40,000 bases of DNA from an uncultured Ignatzschineria sp. (GTDB lineage Bacteria; Pseudomonadota; Gammaproteobacteria; Cardiobacteriales; Wohlfahrtiimonadaceae). The stretch is from assembly GCA_945619025.1 (NCBI GenBank), contig CALZBJ010000001.1:1-40000 (forward strand). The letters are read 5' to 3'. The notes under the pieces are model-generated. The model was not told the origin of the DNA. It made no database searches and saw nothing but the letters and a program-made list of their open reading frames with translations. Within the stretch, counting starts at the first letter, position 1. Each line of letters opens with the position of its first letter. Positions 2,424 to 24,605 of this stretch are shown here, piece by piece. The translations under genes and the position numbers were made by a program.

Positions 2424-2720
2424 TTATTTCACCGTTGGAACGCGTAAAGGATAGAGAATGGCAGTGACAAAATGGGGTAGATAGCCGTGCTCATAATCGC
2501 CATCCGGATCACCGTCACGATTGCGATACATAAGCCCAACATAGGCAAGCGTCGCCTGTTTTGCTTGAAGCGGAGCATTCTCTTGCGTTAAATCATCTCG
2601 TTTCAGATACTCGGAAATGGCAGCACTAGCGGACTTGATATAGATTTCTAAAATCATATCGTCCTCGTTATGATCGATATAACACTGATTTTTAGCCTGC
2701 TCTAAGGTGACTAACATCAT
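2424..2720 (-). CDS. gp6-like head-tail connector protein
   Basis: 98 aa. N-terminus reads LVTLEQAKNQCYIDHNEDDMILEIYIKSASAAISEYL, typical of the Phage_connect_1 (gp6-like) family. Confidence 0.7.
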   Translation of the reverse strand: MMLVTLEQAKNQCYIDHNEDDMILEIYIKSASAAISEYLKRDDLTQENAPLQAKQATLAYVGLMYRNRDGDPDGDYEHGYLPHFVTAILYPLRVPTVK

Positions 2721-3709
2721 GCGCGCAATCCTCTTCTAATCTCTGCAATAAATTCCTTTTCTGATCCTGCAAAACCGCTATTTTTAGCGACCTCATAGGC
2801 CGATAATCCCGGCTTTCCTTTCTCCCCTTGTCGTCCGTGCTTCACGGTTAATTGCCAATCTTCGGAGGAAAATGGACGCTCGGTTGTGGGGTTAATGCAG
2901 GTCCAAAGGCTTCCGTTATCGGTGACGGTATCGCCAATCGCATAGGTGGCCCCTTTCTTAAATACACCGCGATAGATCTGCGCGGGAATCGAAAACTCAA
3001 ACGACTTGCGATGATGCCCCGATTCAAAGTTGAGCGTAATCGTTCGCTCACCATCAAACTCGACATTAAGATCATCAAAGCCCAGTCCATCCTTTCCATC
3101 GAGCCCATCTTTCCCATTCGTGCCATCTTTACCGTCGCGACCATTTACGCCATCTTTACCAAATTGTGCCTGCGCAAATTCAAGCTCTGTGCCGTTATAG
3201 CCATACTGTTTAGCGATCTGATACGCCGATTGGCCATCCTTTCCGTCCTTGCCATCGATACCATCTTTACCATCACGGCCATCTTTAAGGGTTTCGAGCT
3301 TAATCTTATACGGCTCAAACATGAGCGCTAATAGGGATTTAACCTCTTTTACATCCACATCTCGCCCATCTTTTCCATCCTTACCATCCCGAAGGGTTTC
3401 CAGCTTGGTTTTATAGGGCTCGAACATCAATTCTAATAGCCCTTTAATCTCGTGCAAATCAACGCTTTTCCCATCTTGGCCATCTTTACCATCCTTCCCA
3501 TCGCGCCCGTCTTTTCCATTGTCACCATCTTTACCCGGTGTGGGAACGGTTTGGCTTCGTTGGTTGAGTGCGCTCACTTCGTTCGAGAGTGCCTGATTTG
3601 CTGATTTTAATGACGCGACCTCTTTCTCTAACATCCCGCATTTGGACTCTATTTCGGTGTTGATATAGTCTTTAATTGCATTAATTAGCTCGTTTTTTAA
3701 CTCATCCAT
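2717..3709 (-). CDS. Collagen-like (G-X-Y repeat) fibre protein with N-terminal coiled coil, internal 35-aa tandem duplication and C-terminal CBM5/12-like segment
   Basis: 330 aa. Has runs of GKDGxDGKDG triplets. Two near-identical 35-aa units, VDLHEIKGLLELMFEPYKTKLETLRDGKDGKDGRD and VDVKEVKSLLALMFEPYKIKLETLKDGRDGKDGID. Two SAY(Q/E)(I/V)AK..G(Y/F).G(T/S)E.EF motifs of the kind seen in phage fibre proteins. C-terminal YAIGDTVTDNGSLWTCINPT...WQL. Confidence 0.75.
   Translation of the reverse strand: MDELKNELINAIKDYINTEIESKCGMLEKEVASLKSANQALSNEVSALNQRSQTVPTPGKDGDNGKDGRDGKDGKDGQDGKSVDLHEIKGLLELMFEPYKTKLETLRDGKDGKDGRDVDVKEVKSLLALMFEPYKIKLETLKDGRDGKDGIDGKDGKDGQSAYQIAKQYGYNGTELEFAQAQFGKDGVNGRDGKDGTNGKDGLDGKDGLGFDDLNVEFDGERTITLNFESGHHRKSFEFSIPAQIYRGVFKKGATYAIGDTVTDNGSLWTCINPTTERPFSSEDWQLTVKHGRQGEKGKPGLSAYEVAKNSGFAGSEKEFIAEIRRGLRA
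3254..3463 (-). repeat. Tandem duplication (2 x 105 nt) inside the collagen-like gene
   Basis: Encodes aa 83-117 and aa 118-152, which align residue by residue with most positions conserved. Confidence 0.8.
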
Positions 3710-5051
3710 TGACCTTAAACTCCTTAATTAGGCTTGTGAGAAATGCTTTTTCTGATTCATCATCCGGGGTTTCTGGCGCAGATGCACCCGCTTTCTTACC
3801 AAACGGATCGTCTTGAGCGTCTCGTTTAGAGAGCGCTTCCAGTGAATAGTTTTGCTGTTGCAGATAAGGCGTATCACCACCCACGACCGGAAGAAGCCCC
3901 TCTTCGGCGCGCACCTCATTAATCTTTTTCCAACCGCCTTTAACCGCTTCACCATGTGCTTTATATCGGCTCGCGGTATCCATGCGCATTAGGTTTTTAA
4001 TGTCGATATCGATCGACTCGGTCACCCCATCAAACCCCAATCCATCATCAAGGCCCACCTCCAGGGATTCGATATGGTATTGAAGTGCGGATTGGTAATA
4101 TTCAAGATAGATCGCTTCAACATCGGCCTGTGGACGTTTATCCGAAACGCCTGCAACATAGGTAGGCACTCGATACGCCGAACAGATCATCTCTGCGGTT
4201 AACTTAAGTTGCTCGATCAGCTGAGAATCCACTGCGGTCATGCCCATCGGCTCAAATTTAAGCCCATCGCCCAATACGGCGACCTTACCGCTTCCATCAC
4301 CGGAATAATTCTCTTCCCAATTCTTCTTCAAACGCCCAGCCGTATCATCGGAGATCGCTCCCGGCGCGGTTAAAATACCGCTCGGAACAGCGCGATTGCC
4401 AAAAAAGGTATAGCTATTATTTTGAATTTCGAGCCCTTGATTAATCGATACCGCCATAAAAGAGATCGGCGATAATCCAATCAAAGGGTGGTAATAACAA
4501 TTAAAGCGATCGTGAATAATGTCATACGCAGGTACGACCACACTCTCGGTTGAGAGCTTCGCCAGCTTGTCGGTTTTAAGCTCATAATAGACATCTCCCT
4601 GATCCGTCACTAACACCTTCACAAGTCCGGGATCTAATACGTGCAATCCCACAACGCTCCCGTTATGACGCTCTTTTAGCACATAGGTATTCCCATGCAG
4701 TAACTTGGAGCTAATCCACACCTCTTTAAATTGGATATGATTTTGGTAGAGGTTGGGTTTGCGCAACATTTTTAACACCTCATGATCGACGTGTTGATCA
4801 ACGCCTTGCGATTGACGCATAAAGACAAACGGCAATTTAGCGATATCTTGGGAGATATTACTAATGCATGAAAATGCAGCGTAATGAGATAAAGAGGTCT
4901 CTTTTTTTAATTCTTTATTGCGTTGCCAAGCACCTGAAAAAGGCTCTTTCACTAACATCGACACCCACGCAGACGAACGAGCGGATGATGCACTCTTTTG
5001 AGTGACCTCTTTCGCTGCAGTATCTTTTTTTCGATTCAAAAAACTGAACAT
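3702..5051 (-). CDS. Phage portal protein, HK97 family
   Basis: About 450 aa, with a portal-like sequence throughout (…LYQNHIQFKEVWISSKLLHGNTYVLKE…). The ORF track starts at GTG 5057. ATG 5051 is better spaced from the GGGG(T)GA SD. Confidence 0.85.
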   Translation of the reverse strand: MFSFLNRKKDTAAKEVTQKSASSARSSAWVSMLVKEPFSGAWQRNKELKKETSLSHYAAFSCISNISQDIAKLPFVFMRQSQGVDQHVDHEVLKMLRKPNLYQNHIQFKEVWISSKLLHGNTYVLKERHNGSVVGLHVLDPGLVKVLVTDQGDVYYELKTDKLAKLSTESVVVPAYDIIHDRFNCYYHPLIGLSPISFMAVSINQGLEIQNNSYTFFGNRAVPSGILTAPGAISDDTAGRLKKNWEENYSGDGSGKVAVLGDGLKFEPMGMTAVDSQLIEQLKLTAEMICSAYRVPTYVAGVSDKRPQADVEAIYLEYYQSALQYHIESLEVGLDDGLGFDGVTESIDIDIKNLMRMDTASRYKAHGEAVKGGWKKINEVRAEEGLLPVVGGDTPYLQQQNYSLEALSKRDAQDDPFGKKAGASAPETPDDESEKAFLTSLIKEFKVNG

Positions 5052-5061
5052 CTTCACCCCA

Positions 5062-5085
5062 TAAAAAAGCCCCGAAATTGGGGCT
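5062..5085 (-). terminator. Intrinsic terminator between the capsid and portal genes
   Basis: Minus strand AGCCCC-AATTTC-GGGGCT followed by TTTTTTAT. It lies 5 nt after the stop of the -1 frame extension and directly upstream of the portal SD. Confidence 0.75.
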
Positions 5086-5090
5086 CATCG

Positions 5091-5297
5091 CTATTGTCCA
5101 TCGATGTATTGTTGAACATCTGTTTTGGTAATATTCCCCCCAGCACCCGACCCTTGAATCTTAGACAGATCAATCTCATGCGCTGCTGCCAAATCCATGG
5201 CGGCTTGCGTTGCATTGATTGCGTTTGATTCATCAGAAGCAGGTGGCGCGCTTTGGCCACCCTCTTCATTGGGTCCTTCTGGGGAAGCTACTTTCCC
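5091..5297 (-). CDS. Extension ORF in the -1 frame of the capsid gene (66 codons after slippery heptamer G GGA AAG): Pro/Gly/Ser linker plus PSBD/E3-binding-like domain
   Basis: Hand translation from the heptamer: (GK)VASPEGPNEEGGQSAPPASDESNAINATQAAMDLAAAHEIDLSKIQGSGAGGNITKTDVQQYIDGQ*. The frame is closed by TGA codons until 4 codons before the capsid stop. There is no SD-preceded start codon of its own. Confidence 0.6.
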   Translation of the reverse strand, partial: GKVASPEGPNEEGGQSAPPASDESNAINATQAAMDLAAAHEIDLSKIQGSGAGGNITKTDVQQYIDGQ

Positions 5298-6697
5298 GAT
5301 TCAGCACCAGAATCAGTGCCACCGGGAACGCCCCATTTCACATTACTGATATAGGCCACCGCTTCTTTACGGCGACGCTTCCAGTTGATAATGCGCTCCG
5401 CGCGAATTCCCACGAGGTTGGTCTGCCATAAGCTCACCAGTTCCGCGCCTTTACCGGAAATCCCGTCCTGTGTTGGCGTATCGGACATCTCAAGCGAGGC
5501 CTCGGTACTCATATCAAGTAATACGCCATCTTCATCCCCAAGATAGACCTCGGTCGCACTCATTAAAACCACGACATCTTTGGCATATTGGGAAACCAAG
5601 ACCGGAACGCCCTTAATGCTTCCGCCGGTTAAGGTGAGATCCGGATAGAGATAGTTGTCCTTTTCATTACGAAGCTCAGAGAGATGCATCGCACTTACCG
5701 CGCTCATAATATAGACCGCATTGGCCGGATCGAGATTGGCAAGAACATAACGATACCAAAGCGATTGGAAGTCCTTTTCAATCGATTCCACGGATGATCC
5801 GCTCGATTCAACTTTGGTTGCGCCATAGGTAATGGAGGAAGGAGAGACGTTATCCACCCCATTTTTCGCGGGATTGATAAAGTCCTCATCTAATACCTCT
5901 TGGAGCGACTTCGCTAACTCATCACGAACGAGCATATCAATCGCCACGCTCCCATTTCGCAGGGCTTCTTGCGTTAAGACTGCAATCGCTGCCACTTTAA
6001 GCGGATGGAGCGAGCTACTATCGTATCCCCATTTGGTCAAAGGTTTTCCCTTACCTTCTCCAACCCACTGACCTTTTCCGCCTGACACTTGTCCAACAAT
6101 GGTGGTATTAAACGGCACACTGCGAAGCGATGGGATATTGTTTTTCCCAAATTGTCCGATAATGGTCTTAGGCCGTAAGAATTCAATAAAGTCGGTGATG
6201 ATGGTTTTCTCTTCAGGAGCCAACACGCCAATCCATGAGGGATCGCTGGTGCTACCCGCTGACACCGCTGCTTTGGTAAGATTTAAAATTCGGTTATCGC
6301 CCGTCTTTTTCGCTTCCGCTTCGGCAAGGCGCTCAACCATCATCAGGTTACCTTTAGATGCTGCGAAGTTTTTCACAAAGCGCCCAAACAGCACCCCTTT
6401 TTCTTCCTTCGGAGCTGATACGGTAATGCTTAAGCCCGCACGCGCCTTAGTACCTTCCTCTTCACTCTTACCTGAAACGGTAGTTGCACTTTTAACCAGG
6501 CGTTTTTCCATCGCTTTTAAACGAGTTAAATCCGCTTCGATCGAATCCACATCGGCCTCGTATTCATCAAACTCGGCGACTTCGTTTTCATCCATGGTAC
6601 GGCCTTCTTTTGCCGACTTTTCAATGATGTTATTCATCAATTGAACTTTGTTATCTCGCGCCTCTTCAAGCGCTTTAATTTGTTCCGCTAAACTCAT
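5288..6697 (-). CDS. Major capsid protein, HK97 family, with N-terminal coiled-coil delta/scaffolding domain
   Basis: 469 aa. N-terminal helical region reads MSLAEQIKALEEARDNKVQLMNNIIEK...DLTRLKAMEKR, followed by an HK97-fold-like body. Sits directly after the prohead protease. Confidence 0.9.
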   Translation of the reverse strand: MSLAEQIKALEEARDNKVQLMNNIIEKSAKEGRTMDENEVAEFDEYEADVDSIEADLTRLKAMEKRLVKSATTVSGKSEEEGTKARAGLSITVSAPKEEKGVLFGRFVKNFAASKGNLMMVERLAEAEAKKTGDNRILNLTKAAVSAGSTSDPSWIGVLAPEEKTIITDFIEFLRPKTIIGQFGKNNIPSLRSVPFNTTIVGQVSGGKGQWVGEGKGKPLTKWGYDSSSLHPLKVAAIAVLTQEALRNGSVAIDMLVRDELAKSLQEVLDEDFINPAKNGVDNVSPSSITYGATKVESSGSSVESIEKDFQSLWYRYVLANLDPANAVYIMSAVSAMHLSELRNEKDNYLYPDLTLTGGSIKGVPVLVSQYAKDVVVLMSATEVYLGDEDGVLLDMSTEASLEMSDTPTQDGISGKGAELVSLWQTNLVGIRAERIINWKRRRKEAVAYISNVKWGVPGGTDSGAESGK

Positions 6698-6709: not shown

Positions 6710-7285
6710 TTAAATTTTTCTGATTTGAACTACTTTTTTAGTCGAAGCGCCGACTTCTGATACTGTTTGATCGGAGTGCTTAGGAATCGCCCTAATGCTT
6801 TTCACTCGCTGTTGATCAATGCTTTTAATCTCGGTAATGATGGCCTCTGAATTGGCGGGAATCGTCACCAATGAGAGCTCTAAACACTCCCACTCTTTAA
6901 AGTGAATTCCACTTCCATCCTCAAGCCACTCATATTTCTTGCCACTAAACCCGATCGACACCGCTCTCACTAAGCCGTATTTAACCGAATGAATCGCTTC
7001 ATCGACCTGCTCTTTGAGCGCGCCTTCCTCTTTGATATAAGGCAGGCGTGCTGTGAAGGGAATCCCCTCATCGGCCGCTTGACCAAAGTCCACAGTGCCC
7101 ACGGGCTTATCGGATCGGTGTTGCCATAACATCGGCATAGGGTTTTGAAACGTGCCACCTTTAGGCTCAACGATATCGCCGTAACGATCGGGCTTAGGGG
7201 TGGTTGCCGTCCCTGAAAAAATAAAATAATCATCACTCTTCTCGTACTCTTTAACATGGAGTACGGAATACGCTCTCTTTAACAT
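6710..7285 (-). CDS. HK97-family prohead protease (S78)
   Basis: 191 aa. Contains ...DRYGDIVEPKGGTF..PMPMLWQHRSDKPVG...AVSIGF...LELSLVTIPANSEA, the pattern of prohead serine proteases. Confidence 0.85.
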   Translation of the reverse strand: MLKRAYSVLHVKEYEKSDDYFIFSGTATTPKPDRYGDIVEPKGGTFQNPMPMLWQHRSDKPVGTVDFGQAADEGIPFTARLPYIKEEGALKEQVDEAIHSVKYGLVRAVSIGFSGKKYEWLEDGSGIHFKEWECLELSLVTIPANSEAIITEIKSIDQQRVKSIRAIPKHSDQTVSEVGASTKKVVQIRKI

Positions 7286-11556: not shown

Positions 11557-12018
11557 TCACTCTTCTTTAATCTTTTCTTTAAACAATCCAACTAAAACCC
11601 ATATAATAAACACTGTTAAAAATACACTTCCAAGCATAAAAGCATAGGCAATATAAGGCACTGGAAATGACTGTTGAATCGATGCCATAGAAAATATAAA
11701 AGTCCCGATCAAGTAAGCCGCATCAGCAAATACTAAATGAAAAAATAAATCCAAGTACCCTTTATTCGAAAAACTTTTAAAAAACCTAGCGTCGACAACT
11801 GCAAATAATAGGGCGAGTATCGCGACTAACGCACCTAAAATAGTAAATGAATACGATGCTAGGATAGGTGCTATATGCTTTAAATTCACCATCATTCCTA
11901 GTGAGACGTACTTAGATACACCAAGAAAATTATAAAAGAGTACTATTGCTATCCCAAGCAGTAGCGGCACAAAATAAGCTAAGAATACAAGAATCCGAAT
12001 AAGATTTTTTTCCTTCAT
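11557..12018 (-). CDS. rexB: RexB-like multi-pass membrane protein
   Basis: 153 aa with four hydrophobic segments. SYSFTILGALVAILALLFAV resembles lambda RexB SYAGTMIAILIAALTFLIG as I remember it. Directly follows the RexA-like gene. Confidence 0.6.
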   Translation of the reverse strand: MKEKNLIRILVFLAYFVPLLLGIAIVLFYNFLGVSKYVSLGMMVNLKHIAPILASYSFTILGALVAILALLFAVVDARFFKSFSNKGYLDLFFHLVFADAAYLIGTFIFSMASIQQSFPVPYIAYAFMLGSVFLTVFIIWVLVGLFKEKIKEE

Positions 12019-12925
12019 GCTCCCACTCCGATAATCGAGTTGCTAACTGCTCATTTTCATGTAGCGCTTCTGAAATAGATGACGCAATGTTGCCATCTCC
12101 CTTATCTTTAAGATCAATCAAATCACTTAAAGCCCCTTTTGACATTATATAATAGTCACTAAGCCTCTCTTCTAGTTCTTCTTTTGCTCTTAAATTAAAC
12201 TTTTTAACACCATCTAAATTATCTTCTAATAACAATGGAGAAATAACCGGTTTAATATTACCACCTCTTCGGGCAGGCTTAAAAACAACCTCAATGCTTC
12301 CTAGTGTACTTGTATCAAGATTAAGCTGTCCACCACTCTTAAAGTTTTTAATAGCATCAATCACCCCTTGAAACATCTTGTTCTTTGAGTCTATTTCTAT
12401 AGTGCTTCTTCCTATAAACTTTAAAGACTGCGCTTCATGTACAGTCGTTTGATCCGCCATTATTGTTATGTGCATCTTTAGCTGAATCTGCAGTTTTGAA
12501 AATAATTCATTTAAATACTCTCCTAGCTCATTAAGAGTTGGCCCATATATTGTGGGAACAAAACAAATTAATTTTTCTGTAAAATACACATATGCGGCAA
12601 AAGCTATACTTTCATCCTCCTGTAATTTTTCCTTTATATCTGATACCGTTAGCTCTTCTTTATCAATTTTCCTAATAATCTCTTGATCCTTAGTTTTTAC
12701 AAAATAGTATAATCTTGGGATAAAATGTTGATTTCTCTGCATCACTTCTTCCTCAGCCGGCAATAAATAAATCTTTTCACCAGACTTTTCGAAGCTACTT
12801 TTCAACATCAAAGAACCATATTCACTATAAGCTTTTAAAAAAGGCCTTATATCAAAAATAAATTGAGAGTTATTACCACTTTCCTCAGAAAAGTGGTAGG
12901 CAGCATATCTTAATGTTTTTTTCAT
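11930..12925 (-). CDS. rexA: RexA-like abortive-infection protein
   Basis: Start reset to MKKTLRY (GGAGG SD 8 nt upstream). FVKTKDQEIIRKIDKEELTVSDIKEKLQEDESIAFAAYVYF...VPTIYGPTLNELGEYL, KFIGRSTIEID and LRAKEELEERLSDYYIMSKGALS align with remembered lambda RexA blocks FTKTNDKSLVQKINRSKASVEDIKNSLADDESLGFPSFLF...FGPTTSDLTDFL, HFIGRTTVKVE and LRAKDEAGDILTEHYLSEKGHLS. The 3' end overlaps rexB-like by 89 nt. Confidence 0.7.
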   Translation of the reverse strand: MKKTLRYAAYHFSEESGNNSQFIFDIRPFLKAYSEYGSLMLKSSFEKSGEKIYLLPAEEEVMQRNQHFIPRLYYFVKTKDQEIIRKIDKEELTVSDIKEKLQEDESIAFAAYVYFTEKLICFVPTIYGPTLNELGEYLNELFSKLQIQLKMHITIMADQTTVHEAQSLKFIGRSTIEIDSKNKMFQGVIDAIKNFKSGGQLNLDTSTLGSIEVVFKPARRGGNIKPVISPLLLEDNLDGVKKFNLRAKEELEERLSDYYIMSKGALSDLIDLKDKGDGNIASSISEALHENEQLATRLSEWEHEGKKSYSDSCILSLFCAATAWDSNSTLL

Positions 12926-12986
12926 TGATAAATCCTCCAAAACAATCCCTAAATATATCAGATATAAAAAAACAAAAAGAATCAAA

Positions 12987-13772
12987 TTATAAATTTAACA
13001 GGAACATATATTCCTTAATCCTATTCTTCACAATGCTCGTCGCAAACTCGATGCGCTCAATGCTTTGTGGCTGATAGACTTCAAACAGTGCGTCGGACTC
13101 ACTCTTCGGACTCGAAAAGAACAACGCCTTTTCGGTATGAAGCTCGATGATTAACTCGATCGAGTCTTTAAGTTTGAAGTGATCCTCTCCTTTGGCCACA
13201 TACCCGCTTTGGTTTGTCATCACATACGGCGGATCGGCAATAAAGATCACATTCTCTTTGCCTTTAAACTCTTTGATCAGCTCTCGGAAGTCCGCCGATC
13301 TGCGTTCGACTCCCTCCAAATACCCCTCGCTTGTAAGTGCGCTCTTAGGGACGCTCGCATACCAACTCCGACCCTTGAGATCGTCATAGTCATGCGCGTA
13401 ATTAGCCGGGAATAAGAGCCAACTCGATAATGTGATCCAGTCGATCGAATCATACCGATTGATGATCTGAAGCATGCGCTCTTTGATCTCTTCCGACGTT
13501 CGCACCTTCTTCCCGTGTGGGATCGCTTGGAGCTCTTGCCGGAGCGCCTCGGTCTGCTCGATCACTTCAAGACGCGCCTGAAAGTTATCGTAATCATTCC
13601 AAATCACACGCGCCGTGGGATTTTTATCTTTAATCGTATGGGAAACGATACCGCTCCCACCAAAGAGATCGACGACGGTCATACCGTTAAAATCAATCTC
13701 TCGAATCTGTTTAAGCCAATTCCTTTTTTGCCCTAAAAAGGGTAACGGAGACTTAGAGTACTGCTTTGCCAT
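12987..13772 (-). CDS. DNA N6-adenine methyltransferase, D12/Dam class
   Basis: 261 aa. N-terminal SPLPFLGQKRNWL, motif I DLFGGSG, motif IV DPPY. Confidence 0.8.
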   Translation of the reverse strand: MAKQYSKSPLPFLGQKRNWLKQIREIDFNGMTVVDLFGGSGIVSHTIKDKNPTARVIWNDYDNFQARLEVIEQTEALRQELQAIPHGKKVRTSEEIKERMLQIINRYDSIDWITLSSWLLFPANYAHDYDDLKGRSWYASVPKSALTSEGYLEGVERRSADFRELIKEFKGKENVIFIADPPYVMTNQSGYVAKGEDHFKLKDSIELIIELHTEKALFFSSPKSESDALFEVYQPQSIERIEFATSIVKNRIKEYMFLLNL

Positions 13773-19914: not shown

Positions 19915-20601
19915 TTGAACGAAAATGACAAAGCCCTTTCGATAGGGGATAGAATTCAACAAAAAATGAATGAGTTGGGGCTATCTCAAGAGCAGCTCGC
20001 TGACATGGTGGGAATAAGCCAAAACTCTATATCTAAAATAATTAGAGGCGTTACGCGCCGAAGTAAGTCACTTCCATTAATCGCTAAATCATTGGGAGTT
20101 AGTGAGGTATGGCTTGTTTATGGGGATGACATCCAAAGCTCTAATGATGTATTCCCTGCTCCCAACACAACACCCATTAGCGCTCCAAACAATGCAGGAC
20201 GCTTAGTGCCGGTGATCTCTTGGGTTGCAGCAGGTAGTTTTAGCAATATCGATACATTGCCAGCCGATGAATTAATAAAATGGGTGCCATGCCCCGTCCC
20301 GCACAGCCCAAGCACTTTCGCTCTGAAGGTTGTAGGCATTAGTATGGAAAACCCAAATGGAAAACCCTCTTTTGAAGATGGCGATATCATCTACGTCGAC
20401 CCAGAAAAGTGCCCAGAGAATAAATCTTTTGTCATCGTAACCTTAGAAGGCAGTTCGCAAGCGACATTCAAGCAGCTCATTATTGAGCTTGATGGTAAAT
20501 ACATTCAACCCCTAAACCCGAACTGGCATGAGAAGATAATAAAAATTAACGGGAATGCCATCATTAACGGCGTAGTTATTGGGAAGTGGACGGATATATA
20601 A
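19915..20601 (+). CDS. CI-like repressor, XRE HTH plus S24 (LexA-like) autopeptidase domain
   Basis: 228 aa. TTG start with an AGGGGA SD. HTH LSQEQLADMVGISQNSISKIIRG. Ala-Gly cleavage-site context VAAGSF. Ser motif GISMEN and downstream Lys (FKQL). Confidence 0.85.
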   Translation: MNENDKALSIGDRIQQKMNELGLSQEQLADMVGISQNSISKIIRGVTRRSKSLPLIAKSLGVSEVWLVYGDDIQSSNDVFPAPNTTPISAPNNAGRLVPVISWVAAGSFSNIDTLPADELIKWVPCPVPHSPSTFALKVVGISMENPNGKPSFEDGDIIYVDPEKCPENKSFVIVTLEGSSQATFKQLIIELDGKYIQPLNPNWHEKIIKINGNAIINGVVIGKWTDI

Positions 20602-20603
20602 AC

Positions 20604-21722
20604 ATGAATGAAACAAAAAGCAATGAAACCTTGCTGCCAACTGTGTATCCAGATGGGGCAGGTTTTTTCGCTATTAGCATAGATCAGATAGATCAAAGCA
20701 TATGGGCTACAGCTCAAGATATCGCAAGTATTTTTGGTATAGCCAGACCGACAGTTCTTGAACATATAAAAAATATTTACAGAAATCAGGAATTGGCCAG
20801 AAACTCAACTTGTCGGAAATTCCGACAAGTTCAAATCGAAGGCTGCAGAAGGGTTGAGAGAGAAATAGACCACTATAGTTTAGATGTCATCTTAGCTGTT
20901 GGATACAGGACAAATAGTGGAAAAGCTAGCCAGTTCAGGAACTGGGCTGCAAGCGTTCTCAAGAATCATATTGAAAAAGGATACTCTCTAAATTATGCAA
21001 GGCTTGAGAATGATCCTAAAGCACTTAGAGATTTAGCTAACGAAGTAAGAGCGTTGCGCACAAGCGAAAAAAGTACTTACGCAATACTGCGCGAATGCTT
21101 TAGGATTTGCGCTTTAGACTACGATAAAAACTCCCAAGAAGCCCACTCTTTCTTTGCCTTGTTGCAGGATAAGTTTTACCATGCAATTACTAAAATGACG
21201 GGCTCTAAAATAATATTAGACAGAGCAAGATCAGAAGATGCCAATGCTGGAGTTGTATCTTTTAATACCGAAATTCCAACTATAGATGAAATGCTAACAG
21301 CAAAAAACTACTTCAACAATAAAGAACTGCAAGAATTAAACTTGCTATCAGAAGCCTTTTTAGTAATGGCTGAATCGTTAATATCGAGAGGCATAAGGAT
21401 GACTATGAATGGACTTCATAAGAAGATAGACGAAACCATGCGGTTACTTGAATACGATGTTTTTGGTGGTTATGAGAACTACACAAGAGATGAAGCAAAC
21501 GCTCATGCAAGAAGAGAGCACGCCAATTATTTAGAGATACTGCGACTGCAAATGCTAGATTTAGACCACCCTTTCTCTCTTGATAACTTTTACAATGGTG
21601 AATATGACTACCTAAAAGAAGAGACATCAAAAATTTCCCTACATCGGCTAAAGAAAAATCTCCCACAAATAAATGAAAAACTTCTTTTAATAAATCAACG
21701 CCTCTTCTTAGAACATTCATAA
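20604..21722 (+). CDS. RhuM-family protein, apparently co-transcribed with the repressor
   Basis: Start reset to MNETKS, 2 nt after the cI stop. IWATAQDIASIFGIARPTVLEHIKNIY...YSLDVILAVGYRTNSGKASQFRNWAASVLKNHIEKGY is the conserved Virulence_RhuM core. Confidence 0.7.
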   Translation: MNETKSNETLLPTVYPDGAGFFAISIDQIDQSIWATAQDIASIFGIARPTVLEHIKNIYRNQELARNSTCRKFRQVQIEGCRRVEREIDHYSLDVILAVGYRTNSGKASQFRNWAASVLKNHIEKGYSLNYARLENDPKALRDLANEVRALRTSEKSTYAILRECFRICALDYDKNSQEAHSFFALLQDKFYHAITKMTGSKIILDRARSEDANAGVVSFNTEIPTIDEMLTAKNYFNNKELQELNLLSEAFLVMAESLISRGIRMTMNGLHKKIDETMRLLEYDVFGGYENYTRDEANAHARREHANYLEILRLQMLDLDHPFSLDNFYNGEYDYLKEETSKISLHRLKKNLPQINEKLLLINQRLFLEHS

Positions 21723-23371: not shown

Positions 23372-23580
23372 GCAAATACAGAGCGGGCGTTCAAGTCCAC
23401 TTCACCTATTTCAACGGCTATATCGACGCTTTCAAAGTTGTCGGGAAAGAGATGTGGATTGGAGAACAAAGATATTTTTTAGAAGATGATGGAAACCCCG
23501 AGCACTACTCAATCAAAGAGAGCCAACTAAAACTAGCAAATGAGTTTGCAAAAATCGGATTTGAAGCGGAGGCAGAATAA
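23368..23580 (+). CDS. Hypothetical small protein
   Basis: 70 aa. ATGA overlap upstream and TAATG overlap with ssb. Confidence 0.5.
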
Positions 23581-24056
23581 TGGCGCGTGGTATTAACAAA
23601 GCAATCATTCTTGGCAATCTTGGCCAAGACCCGACCATTCGATACACCGCAGGTGGTGCTGCAGTGACGAGCTTTTCAATTGCAACATCCGAGACTTGGA
23701 AAGACAAAAACACGGGAGAGCCCCAAGAGCGCACCGAATGGCATAACGTAGTATTTTTTGGAAAGCTTGCGGAAATCGCCGGCCAATACTTAAAGAAAGG
23801 CTCGAAAATCTATATCGAGGGCAAGCTCCAGACGCGCAAGTGGCAGGATAAAAACGGCATTGACCGTTACTCAACTGAGATTATCGCCCACGAATTGCAA
23901 ATGTTAGGTGGTCCTCAACGCGATCAGTATTCAAATGACGATCGGCCAGACCATGGTCGCGAACCACAGCCTCAAGTAAATGACGGCACACAATATGAAA
24001 ATGCATTCAATTCAATGCCAGACCCGAACACTATCGATGAAGAAATTCCATTTTAA
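23580..24056 (+). CDS. ssb: Single-stranded DNA-binding protein
   Basis: 158 aa. [69 protein letters not shown]. Acidic tip DEEIPF. Confidence 0.9.
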
Positions 24057-24067
24057 GGAGAGTAAAA

Positions 24068-24451
24068 ATGAGTGCAATCCAACTTATCTCTGAATTGGTA
24101 AAACAAGACCAAATTGAACGGACAAATAATAAAGAATTATTAGAGCAGATTTTAAATAAACTACTCATCTTTGAAAGCTCTATCAAAACCAAAAACAAAT
24201 ACATGATCGGCTATTACGATATAAATGATCTTATAAAGCTACTTAACATTAGCGCGCCAACAATTTATAAGGAAATAAGAGCCAATACCTTCCCCAAGCA
24301 AGTTCGGATTGGCGCACGATCATCTGTATGGTGTCGAAATGAAATCGCTGCCTGGATAGAAATTAATACAAATTTAGGCAGAGAATATATAGAAAATTGT
24401 GGCTGGACTAATATTTATACGGATAGATATGGCTCTAAAAATAAAAAATAA
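24068..24451 (+). CDS. AlpA-family DNA-binding protein (excisionase/regulator-like) with an N-terminal extension
   Basis: 127 aa. LLNISAPTIYKEIRANTFPKQVRIGARSSVWCRNEIAAWIE is the Phage_AlpA pattern. AAGGAG SD. Confidence 0.7.
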   Translation: MSAIQLISELVKQDQIERTNNKELLEQILNKLLIFESSIKTKNKYMIGYYDINDLIKLLNISAPTIYKEIRANTFPKQVRIGARSSVWCRNEIAAWIEINTNLGREYIENCGWTNIYTDRYGSKNKK

Positions 24452-24528: not shown

Positions 24529-24605
24529 TGGTGGACATAGGTAGATTCGAACTACCGACCCCAACATTATGAGTGTTGTGCTCTAACCAACTGAGCTATA
24601 TGTCC
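24529..24605 (-). tRNA. tRNA-Met (anticodon CAU), elongator type
   Basis: Reverse complement: GGACATATAGCTCAGTTGGTTAGAGCACAACACTCATAATGTTGGGGTCGGTAGTTCGAATCTACCTATGTCCACCA. 77 nt with a full cloverleaf, G1-C72 and encoded CCA. The D and anticodon arms are close to E. coli metT as remembered. tRNA-Ile2 (k2C) is not formally excluded. Confidence 0.9.

Follow-up and report, generated by a model that had tools for sequence, protein, structure and literature searches.

Organization of the capsid locus

The window analyzed here is a 40,000-nucleotide (nt) prophage-bearing stretch from an uncultured Ignatzschineria sp. (contig CALZBJ010000001.1, positions 1 to 40,000). Our subject is the 3′ end of the prophage major capsid gene, where a programmed –1 frameshift probably appends a small peripheral subunit-binding domain (PSBD) to a minority of the capsid subunits. 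Positions refer to this window, and the features of the capsid locus lie on its minus strand. The capsid gene (5288–6697), taken from the open reading frame (ORF) list, encodes in the zero frame a 469-residue protein of the HK97 family. This assignment is founded on the profile match (Pfam Phage_capsid, PF05065; 4e-18) and on the surrounding head module, in which genes for an S78 prohead protease, TerL and the portal are adjacent and the terminase genes lie upstream. The protease gene (6710–7285; Pfam Peptidase_S78, 3e-10) immediately precedes the capsid gene. The ~100 N-terminal residues of the capsid protein are scaffold- or delta-like in appearance, and many of its 1178 homologues are fused to an S78 protease. 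An exact-sequence look-up of the capsid protein returned no identical record. Capsid genes of this group are currently annotated only as a 459- or 469-residue 'phage major capsid protein', and standard annotation misses the extension described below.

The capsid ORF ends with GAA TCG GGA AAG TAG. Its last two sense codons belong to the slippery heptamer G GGA AAG (5291–5297), which stands in phase as X XXY YYZ, and the zero-frame stop TAG (5288–5290) abuts the heptamer on its 3′ side. A stop adjoins the slip site in all lineages and may act as a 'slow A-site' stimulator. Read in the –1 frame, the codons ATC GGG AAA come after a TGA and lead to the first new codon, GTA (5291–5289), so that this frame opens three codons upstream of GTA. 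It remains open for 66 codons, VASPEG...YIDGQ (VASPEGPNEEGGQSAPPASDESNAINATQAAMDLAAAHEIDLSKIQGSGAGGNITKTDVQQYIDGQ), up to a TAG stop at 5091–5093. An earlier note on this DNA, made from the sequence alone, had proposed a frameshift here, and its account of the capsid ORF end, the in-phase heptamer, the opening of the –1 frame at the heptamer and its length is borne out by the sequence. The predicted trans-frame junction is ...AESGK-VASPEG... (junction sequence GAESGKVASPEGPNEE), and example peptides predicted from the –1 frame are IQGSGAGGNITK and TDVQQYIDGQ.

Residues 1–25 of the extension (VASPEGPNEEGGQSAPPASDESNAI; 5217–5291) form an acidic linker rich in Pro, Gly and Ser, and residues 26–66 (5094–5216) form the predicted PSBD-fold domain. 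A terminator scan identified a hairpin, GAGCCCCAATTTCGGGGCTT, that resembles an intrinsic terminator and precedes a T run (5061–5086; stem 5086–5067). The hairpin begins 4 nt past the stop codon of the extension, that is, not after the capsid stop; the earlier note had placed it in the same position with a spacing of 5 nt. The sole in-frame ATG of the window extension encodes Met32 in helix 1, within the domain, and has no Shine–Dalgarno (SD) sequence, as had been noted before. No ATG, GTG or TTG occurs upstream of the domain in the window. One metagenome gene caller predicts a 35-residue ORF from Met32 (P0190).

The codon-usage log-likelihood of the extension is +18.8 bits in the –1 frame versus –22.7 and –66.2 bits in the other two frames. 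The heptamer is by itself unremarkable in number, as GGGAAAG occurs nine times in the window versus 5.9 expected, which is not significant; it is its position and conservation together that exceed chance. The capsid gene also contains three other in-phase X XXY YYZ patterns, TTTAAAA, TTTAAAT and GGGAAAA, at gene positions 177, 411 and 648.

Six distinct lineages are compared in the following sections, namely the window and the prophage loci L001, L003, L102 (I. cameli), L103 (I. indica) and L106 (Ignatzschineria sp. F8392); L275 is a near-identical variant of the window. Past the capsid stop, the zero frame is not conserved and is closed after 30 codons in L001 and after 20 in L003. The listed ORF 5054–5269 is this zero-frame continuation past TAG, and the earlier view that it translates to noise agrees with these data.

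The extension comprises an acidic linker and a predicted PSBD fold

Pfam E3_binding (PF02817), the family of the PSBDs of 2-oxoacid dehydrogenase E2 chains, matches residues 33–60 of the window extension with 37.1 bits (3.6e-9; cut-off 23.7), and the L001 and L003 extensions with 46–47 bits. A profile built from three extensions matches 34 solved chains, nearly all of them PSBDs from E2 or the E3-binding protein (E3BP), with 1w4i as the best match in the PDB (5.9e-11). In the AlphaFold model, the predicted local distance difference test (pLDDT) score is ~50 for residues 1–20 and 88–92 for residues 31–66, and the predicted helices H18–37 and H56–65 are linked by a loop with short turns. When this model was compared with the PDB using Foldseek, ranks 1–30 were all PSBDs, with root-mean-square deviations of 0.5–5.0 Å, mostly ~1 Å over 31–37 aligned columns; the E-values are weak because the domain is tiny. 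Taken together, the profile match, the AlphaFold model and the Foldseek comparison indicate that the extension is an acidic flexible linker followed by a PSBD-fold domain, as the earlier note had predicted from the residue pattern.

The earlier label 'E3-binding-like' applies no further than the fold: the domain is acidic, and at the aligned positions the basic residues of E2 PSBDs are missing. The PSBD core has a net charge of –3 in all six lineages, versus +3 in 1w4i and +1 in E. coli E2o. The Arg pair of E2 helix 1 (RR) is replaced by MD, IS, RD or LE in the six lineages, and the loop GGR by GGN or GGS. E3 binding is said, in work of Mande et al. from 1996, to depend on these basic PSBD residues. 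Furthermore, the domain is not part of an E2 or E3BP chain, and lipoyl and acyltransferase domains are absent. Because it is acidic, has these basic residues replaced and does not belong to an E2 chain, canonical binding of E3 or E1 by the extension domain appears unlikely from its sequence.

We found no publication tying E3_binding or the PSBD to phage capsids, in agreement with the statement of the earlier note that no PSBD-like domain was known to be displayed on a capsid by frameshifting. The PHROGs database holds no family for the extension, and no solved phage structure is present among the PDB profile matches of the extensions. When 50,697 phage records were searched with the extension by tblastn, the matches were weak only (E ≥ 2e-3, identity ≤ 51%), an annotated pdhC included, and these look like bacterial sequence; isolated phage genomes yielded no close relative.

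The putative recoding cassette is conserved in related prophages

Flanking genes assign the host to Ignatzschineria. The closest capsids, P0002 (locus L001) and P0003 (L003), are 69% and 67% identical to that of the window (the range quoted for this clade is 66–75%), and their genes end with GCG GGA AAG TAG and CCG GGA AAG TAG, respectively. In both, the –1 frame is open for 54 codons and encodes a linker and a PSBD. Scanning viral contigs with the PSBD alignment retrieved three further prophages, L102, L103 and L106, whose capsids are just 37–43% identical to those of the window clade. Their capsid genes end with CCG GGA AAG TAG (L102), CCG GGA AAG TAA (L106) and CCG GTA AAG TAG (L103). Thus, a perfect G GGA AAG precedes the stop in five of the six lineages, and an open –1 frame with linker and PSBD is present in all six, running for 54–59 codons in L001, L003, L102 and L106. 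This recurrence had been put forward earlier as a check of the frameshift; the open frame passes it throughout, and the heptamer does so everywhere except in L103. The stop adjoining the slip site is TAG in five of the six lineages and TAA in L106 and in the variant L275. Given the encoded residues X-G-K, the heptamer would be expected from codon choice in 2–4% of cases per lineage.

Synonymous sites of the extension are near saturation among the lineages, and the ratio of nonsynonymous to synonymous change (dN/dS) is 0.15–0.47. In L275, which is 99% identical to the window, three substitutions fall in the PSBD and all are synonymous in the –1 frame; its heptamer is intact, and the extension stop has changed from TAG to TAA. 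The linker differs in length among lineages by whole codons only, that of the window being 12 codons longer. No ATG, GTG or TTG precedes the domain in L001, L003, L102 or L103, and L106 has a GTG nine codons past the slip site. In addition, a hairpin (GCCCCGAAAGGGGC) with a T run lies at the same place, 3′ of the extension stop, in all six lineages, followed by the SD sequence and ATG of the portal gene.

Between the two capsid clades, the proteases are 60–64%, the portals ~60% and the head–tail connectors 64–69% identical, whereas the capsids share just 37%; the protease, portal and connector of the second clade are as close to those of the window as are those within the window clade. By these sequences, the two clades form a single phage group that has retained the recoding cassette while its capsid body diverged or was exchanged. 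By comparison, among 80 more distant capsid relatives (41–47% identical), none has GGGAAAG at the gene end and none has a PSBD anywhere in the locus; in these, the capsid gene is instead followed by a small independent gene that begins with an ATG of its own. In two related outgroup capsid genes, from L013 and L078, C CCA AAG occurs at the stop or close to it; the –1 ORF there spans only 19 codons, however, and these cases are probably due to chance.

A genome scan with capsid peptides yielded no confirmed relative, a genome scan with the PSBD alignment yielded Nitrospirota contigs only, presumably with metabolic genes, and a first metagenome scan for relatives gave no match. A DNA pattern (AAAGTAR, 95–125 nt, then a PSBD motif), whose gap range excludes the 134-nt linker of the window itself, retrieved only the three known Ignatzschineria prophages from viral contigs. 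In metagenomes, the same pattern had at least 120 matches, and none of the matches listed passed the frame and ORF filter; in most of them the motif is in frame with AAAGTAR, as expected of one continuous gene. No in-frame capsid–PSBD fusion occurs in the best 120 of the 1178 capsid homologues. Likewise, a profile search of 1.84 billion representatives gave 4384 matches with no evident in-frame capsid–PSBD fusion in the top list, which is dominated by proteins with several PSBDs.

Frameshift model and alternative explanations

Together, the observed sequence anatomy, the identity of the domain, its conservation and the purifying selection on the –1 frame point to a programmed –1 frameshift at the end of the capsid gene, which probably gives rise to a minor, PSBD-tailed capsid isoform. 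An in-phase heptamer is coupled to a conserved –1 ORF that lacks its own start and specifies a Pfam domain, and, as in T7 10B, the recoding site lies at the 3′ end of the capsid gene and would add a predicted folded domain. Most ribosomes would read ...TCG GGA AAG and terminate at UAG to produce the 469-residue capsid protein, and a minority would slip back by one base on G GGA AAG. In one possible route, tRNA-Gly and tRNA-Lys would re-pair in tandem on GGG AAA. In the other, the adjacent stop would await release factor as the P-site tRNA-Lys shifts its pairing from AAG to AAA, and this route would still be open to L103. Both routes would lead to the same product, ...AESGK-VASPEG.... We propose two routes because no RNA stimulator was found, the adjacent stop is the sole conserved flanking feature of the slip site and A_AAG is itself shifty. 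In E. coli, G_GGA_AAG is highly shift-prone, and the tetranucleotide A_AAG alone supports –1 shifting at a lower level (PMC5009743).

Slipped ribosomes would add 66 residues, consisting of a disordered acidic linker of ~25 residues and a PSBD-fold domain of ~40 residues, and the outcome would be a minor capsid isoform, heavier by ~7 kDa, that becomes part of the shell by co-assembly. The G:GT ratio of phage lambda is 30:1 (PMC5009743), and a similar efficiency would place on the order of ten extended subunits in each capsid. In HK97-fold encapsulin shells the C-terminus is exposed and has been used for exterior display (PMC8229669), and the capsid proteins that T3, T7 and A2 extend by frameshifting are part of the virion (PMC5009743); by analogy, a small helical domain on a flexible tether at the outer capsid surface is the likeliest geometry. 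Most likely the domain would mediate docking or adhesion to a partner other than the canonical E3 or E1, since it carries other residues in place of the basic ones of E2 PSBDs and its charge is of opposite sign. We infer the occurrence of the slip, its efficiency, the incorporation of the product into virions and its function as parts of this model.

Several points weigh against the frameshift reading. No conserved RNA structure was found within 90 nt 3′ of the site (z –0.7 to –2.8, with folds that differ per lineage), and no consistently placed upstream SD-like element is seen in the six-lineage alignment. A cis-acting stimulator is not obligatory for –1 frameshifting. In L103 (I. indica), the heptamer is broken by one base, G GTA AAG (L103 3462–3471), and four NCBI accessions carry this exact protein, which shows the variant to be real. 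L103 nevertheless keeps A AAG TAG, an open –1 frame and an intact PSBD, with a dN/dS of 0.22 versus L102, so that by its sequence either the full heptamer would be dispensable, with A AAG plus a stop being sufficient, or the function has recently been disabled or lost. The arrangement is also confined to a narrow phage group of six lineages, whose named hosts all belong to Ignatzschineria. Finally, the whole case is built on sequence, and how the C-terminus is oriented, how many copies each capsid carries and what the domain binds stand at the level of inference.

Other explanations are less likely. Granted a real frameshift, the domain could act as in 2-oxoacid dehydrogenase complexes, by binding E1 or dihydrolipoamide dehydrogenase (E3/Lpd) of the host, either in the course of assembly or once in the virion. 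Its membership in the E3_binding family is clear by sequence and by fold, and several stand-alone phage PSBD proteins retain a GRITK motif and are more E2-like; but we regard this binding as unlikely, given the net charge of –3 across the six lineages against the positive values of two E2 domains, and the substitution of both the helix-1 RR pair and the loop GGR. It is still less probable that the –1 ORF is a decaying, non-expressed relic of a small downstream gene (N-terminal domain, linker and PSBD) that has lost its 5′ part. Other phages do encode such stand-alone proteins directly after the capsid gene, and the L103 heptamer is damaged. A relic, however, would not be expected to keep an open frame and all domain-defining residues in six lineages near synonymous saturation, with dN/dS values of 0.15–0.47 and linker indels in whole codons only, nor to retain the heptamer and stop at the nucleotide level against codon-usage expectation and a terminator placed after the extension.

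The PSBD might instead be made as a free small peptide, through independent initiation or termination–reinitiation, and never be fused to the capsid. The in-frame ATG of Met32, which one gene caller does use, and the GTG of L106 would allow this, but four of the lineages offer no start codon before the domain, and initiation at the window ATG, which has no SD sequence, would truncate the domain within helix 1. The linker that precedes any such start likewise evolves under purifying selection and stays in frame, and we regard a free peptide as very improbable. Lastly, an assembly or sequencing error, or readthrough of the TAG, would turn capsid and tail into one in-frame ORF, an idea favored only by the adjacency of the two reading frames. 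The identical one-base offset recurs in independent assemblies and lineages, the zero frame past the stop is non-conserved and soon closed in L001 and L003, and the capsid homologues inspected contain no in-frame fusion; these comparative data effectively refute it. The programmed –1 frameshift therefore remains our preferred explanation.

PSBD proteins beside the capsid genes of other phages

Stand-alone proteins of 80–290 residues that end in the same PSBD subtype are encoded directly downstream of the capsid gene in unrelated phages. They were located downstream of the major head gene at L098 (7001–7252), at L113 (2754–3623) and, each near 3300–3650, at L117, L125, L129, L130, L132, L141, L143 and L148. 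The upstream neighbor is a PHROG 'major head protein' in nine of ten tested loci, drawn from five families, and 120 neighbors at 41 loci include 16 Pfam capsid matches. The closest stand-alone protein, P0191, has 83 residues, is 63% identical over the domain and comes from a marine phage, where it is encoded after a phrog_283 major head gene. These proteins share with the Ignatzschineria extension the subtype GxGxGGxITKxDVQxYID (43–63% identity) and the post-capsid position, but differ from it in having their own start codon, an additional N-terminal part of 40–250 residues and no frameshift. They have no PHROG match, and the extension probably either evolved from such proteins or is equivalent to them in function.

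A second family, of 180–200 residues with a C-terminal PSBD, was found at L086 (3569–4132; contig shared with L108), L104, L105, L111, L114 and L115. It is marked by the conserved motif PNPY..EE.QGM.M.P..VGPPQYGSPDPA, and it sits in a scaffold-like position, between a gene for a ~390-residue protein and the genes for a Phage_cement_2 decoration protein and the capsid. Among viral contigs we also noted a 617-residue family-2 glycosyltransferase with a C-terminal PSBD (L123/L124, 1776–3626) and a protein with two PSBD repeats followed by a helical tail (L151, 3111–3773).

In the PSBD-less capsid relatives, a small protein of 70–110 residues with its own ATG comes right after the capsid, as at L005 (1931–2146), L011, L014, L029, L052, L061, L069, L079 and L080. 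These proteins combine a weak DUF7210 N-terminus and an Ala/Pro/acidic linker with variable C-termini (e.g., GKRPFHGWDAETL or a basic tail), and correspond to PHROGs 29995, 590 and 10209, whose function is unassigned. C-termini of the HeH/Rho_N type were considered for them and are unsupported by Pfam, which gave only the weak DUF7210 matches.

The occurrence of stand-alone PSBD proteins beside major head genes of several families indicates, at the level of sequence, that the PSBD-like module is recurrently capsid-associated, and recoding appears to be the means by which Ignatzschineria phages have joined it to the capsid. For Ig-like domains, one proposal holds that a shuffled domain landing out of frame is rescued by frameshifting (PMC5009743), and by analogy the acquisition of the PSBD fits this model. 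More speculatively, PSBD folds could be a widespread and so far overlooked class of capsid-tethered modules in tailed phages, present as separate proteins across at least five unrelated capsid families or, in Ignatzschineria phages, through frameshift fusion, that recruit a specific partner to the capsid surface. The partner would then be a head accessory, such as the collagen-like protein encoded nearby, or a ligand from the host or environment, much as E2 cores recruit enzymes.

Neighboring genes in the prophage

On the minus strand between 2717 and 9444, the genes run in the order TerS, TerL, prohead protease, capsid and portal; placing the portal gene after the capsid gene is unusual, and this order is kept in L001, L003, L102, L103 and L106. 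The portal gene (3702–5057; Pfam Phage_portal, 4.7e-78) lies downstream of the capsid gene. Its true start is probably the ATG at 5051, preceded by the SD sequence GGGGTGA (5054–5060), and not the GTG at 5057 of the ORF list; the sequence ATGTTYAGTTTT at the portal start (5049–5060) is conserved across the six lineages. Between the portal and head–tail connector genes, on the same strand, a 330-residue protein is encoded (2717–3709) that has a coiled coil at the N-terminus and G-x-y repeats of the collagen-like kind; its C-terminus weakly matches CBM_5_12, a chitin-binding type. It is conserved at 47–51% in both capsid clades. This collagen-like protein may be a head fiber and is a candidate partner of the PSBD tail.

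The remainder of the prophage encodes a RexA-like abortive-infection sensor (11930–12985), a Dam-like methyltransferase (12987–13772), a CI-like S24 repressor (19915–20601), RhuM (20586–21722), SSB (23580–24056) and AlpA (24068–24451). The AlpA gene adjoins a tRNA-Met gene (24529–24605), after which come host genes (argC and RND efflux), and the tRNA-Met beside AlpA is likely the attachment-site end of the prophage.

Significance and comparison with known systems

Frameshift-made capsid extensions are known already, and the heptamer is a classic one. What appears to be new is a PSBD-type domain appended to a capsid, together with the compact design of a heptamer plus stop and no RNA stimulator. 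If confirmed, a non-Ig-like domain would be added to the few that recoding is known to place on capsids. The site would also offer a natural test case of a heptamer and adjacent stop with no obvious RNA stimulator, for which the broken-heptamer variant of I. indica is available for comparison. In addition, the extension links to a larger set of uncharacterized, capsid-adjacent proteins that end in a PSBD, and so gives a handle on the role of 'orphan' proteins of head modules. The PSBD is among the smallest autonomously folding domains, and its natural low-copy display on an HK97-type shell would provide a design for phage or encapsulin display.

With regard to the slip site, the closest parallel is the G/GT system of phage lambda, which reportedly uses the same heptamer, G GGA AAG (Levin et al., 1993). 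In both systems a low-level shift would set a fixed ratio of two products. The lambda products, however, are assembly chaperones absent from virions, whereas the gene here is that of the capsid and the added domain is of a display type.

With regard to the domain, the PSBD of E2 chains shares with the capsid tail its sequence family, its predicted fold, its size of 35–40 residues and a flexible Ala/Pro/acidic linker before the domain. By comparison, the E2 domain resides in an E2 chain and is basic, with an Arg pair in helix 1 and an Arg in the loop, whereas the capsid-tail domain is acidic (–3) and has these residues replaced. Because of these differences, the partner of the capsid-tail domain is, judging from its sequence, probably other than that of E2 PSBDs. 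Ig-like decoration domains (e.g., T4 Hoc) offer a functional analogy, as a small accessory domain at low copy on the capsid, and are sometimes delivered by frameshifting after domain shuffling (PMC5009743). Their fold differs from that of the PSBD-like domain, and adhesion by the latter is suggested at the level of analogy.

Capsid extensions made by frameshifting have been described for T3, T7, A2, A118, A500 and PSA (PMC5009743). In T7 and T3 (gene 10A/10B), Lactobacillus phage A2 (gp5A/5B) and the Listeria phages A118 and A500 (–1) and PSA (+1), as in the Ignatzschineria prophages, the extension is a small autonomous domain. It is Ig-like in T3 and A2 and of another or unknown fold in T7, whereas here a PSBD fold is predicted on an acidic linker. 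Our comparison further distinguishes the Ignatzschineria capsid gene from these T7, T3, A2 and Listeria cases by a slip site that coincides with the last two codons and abuts the stop, where no conserved downstream RNA structure was found.

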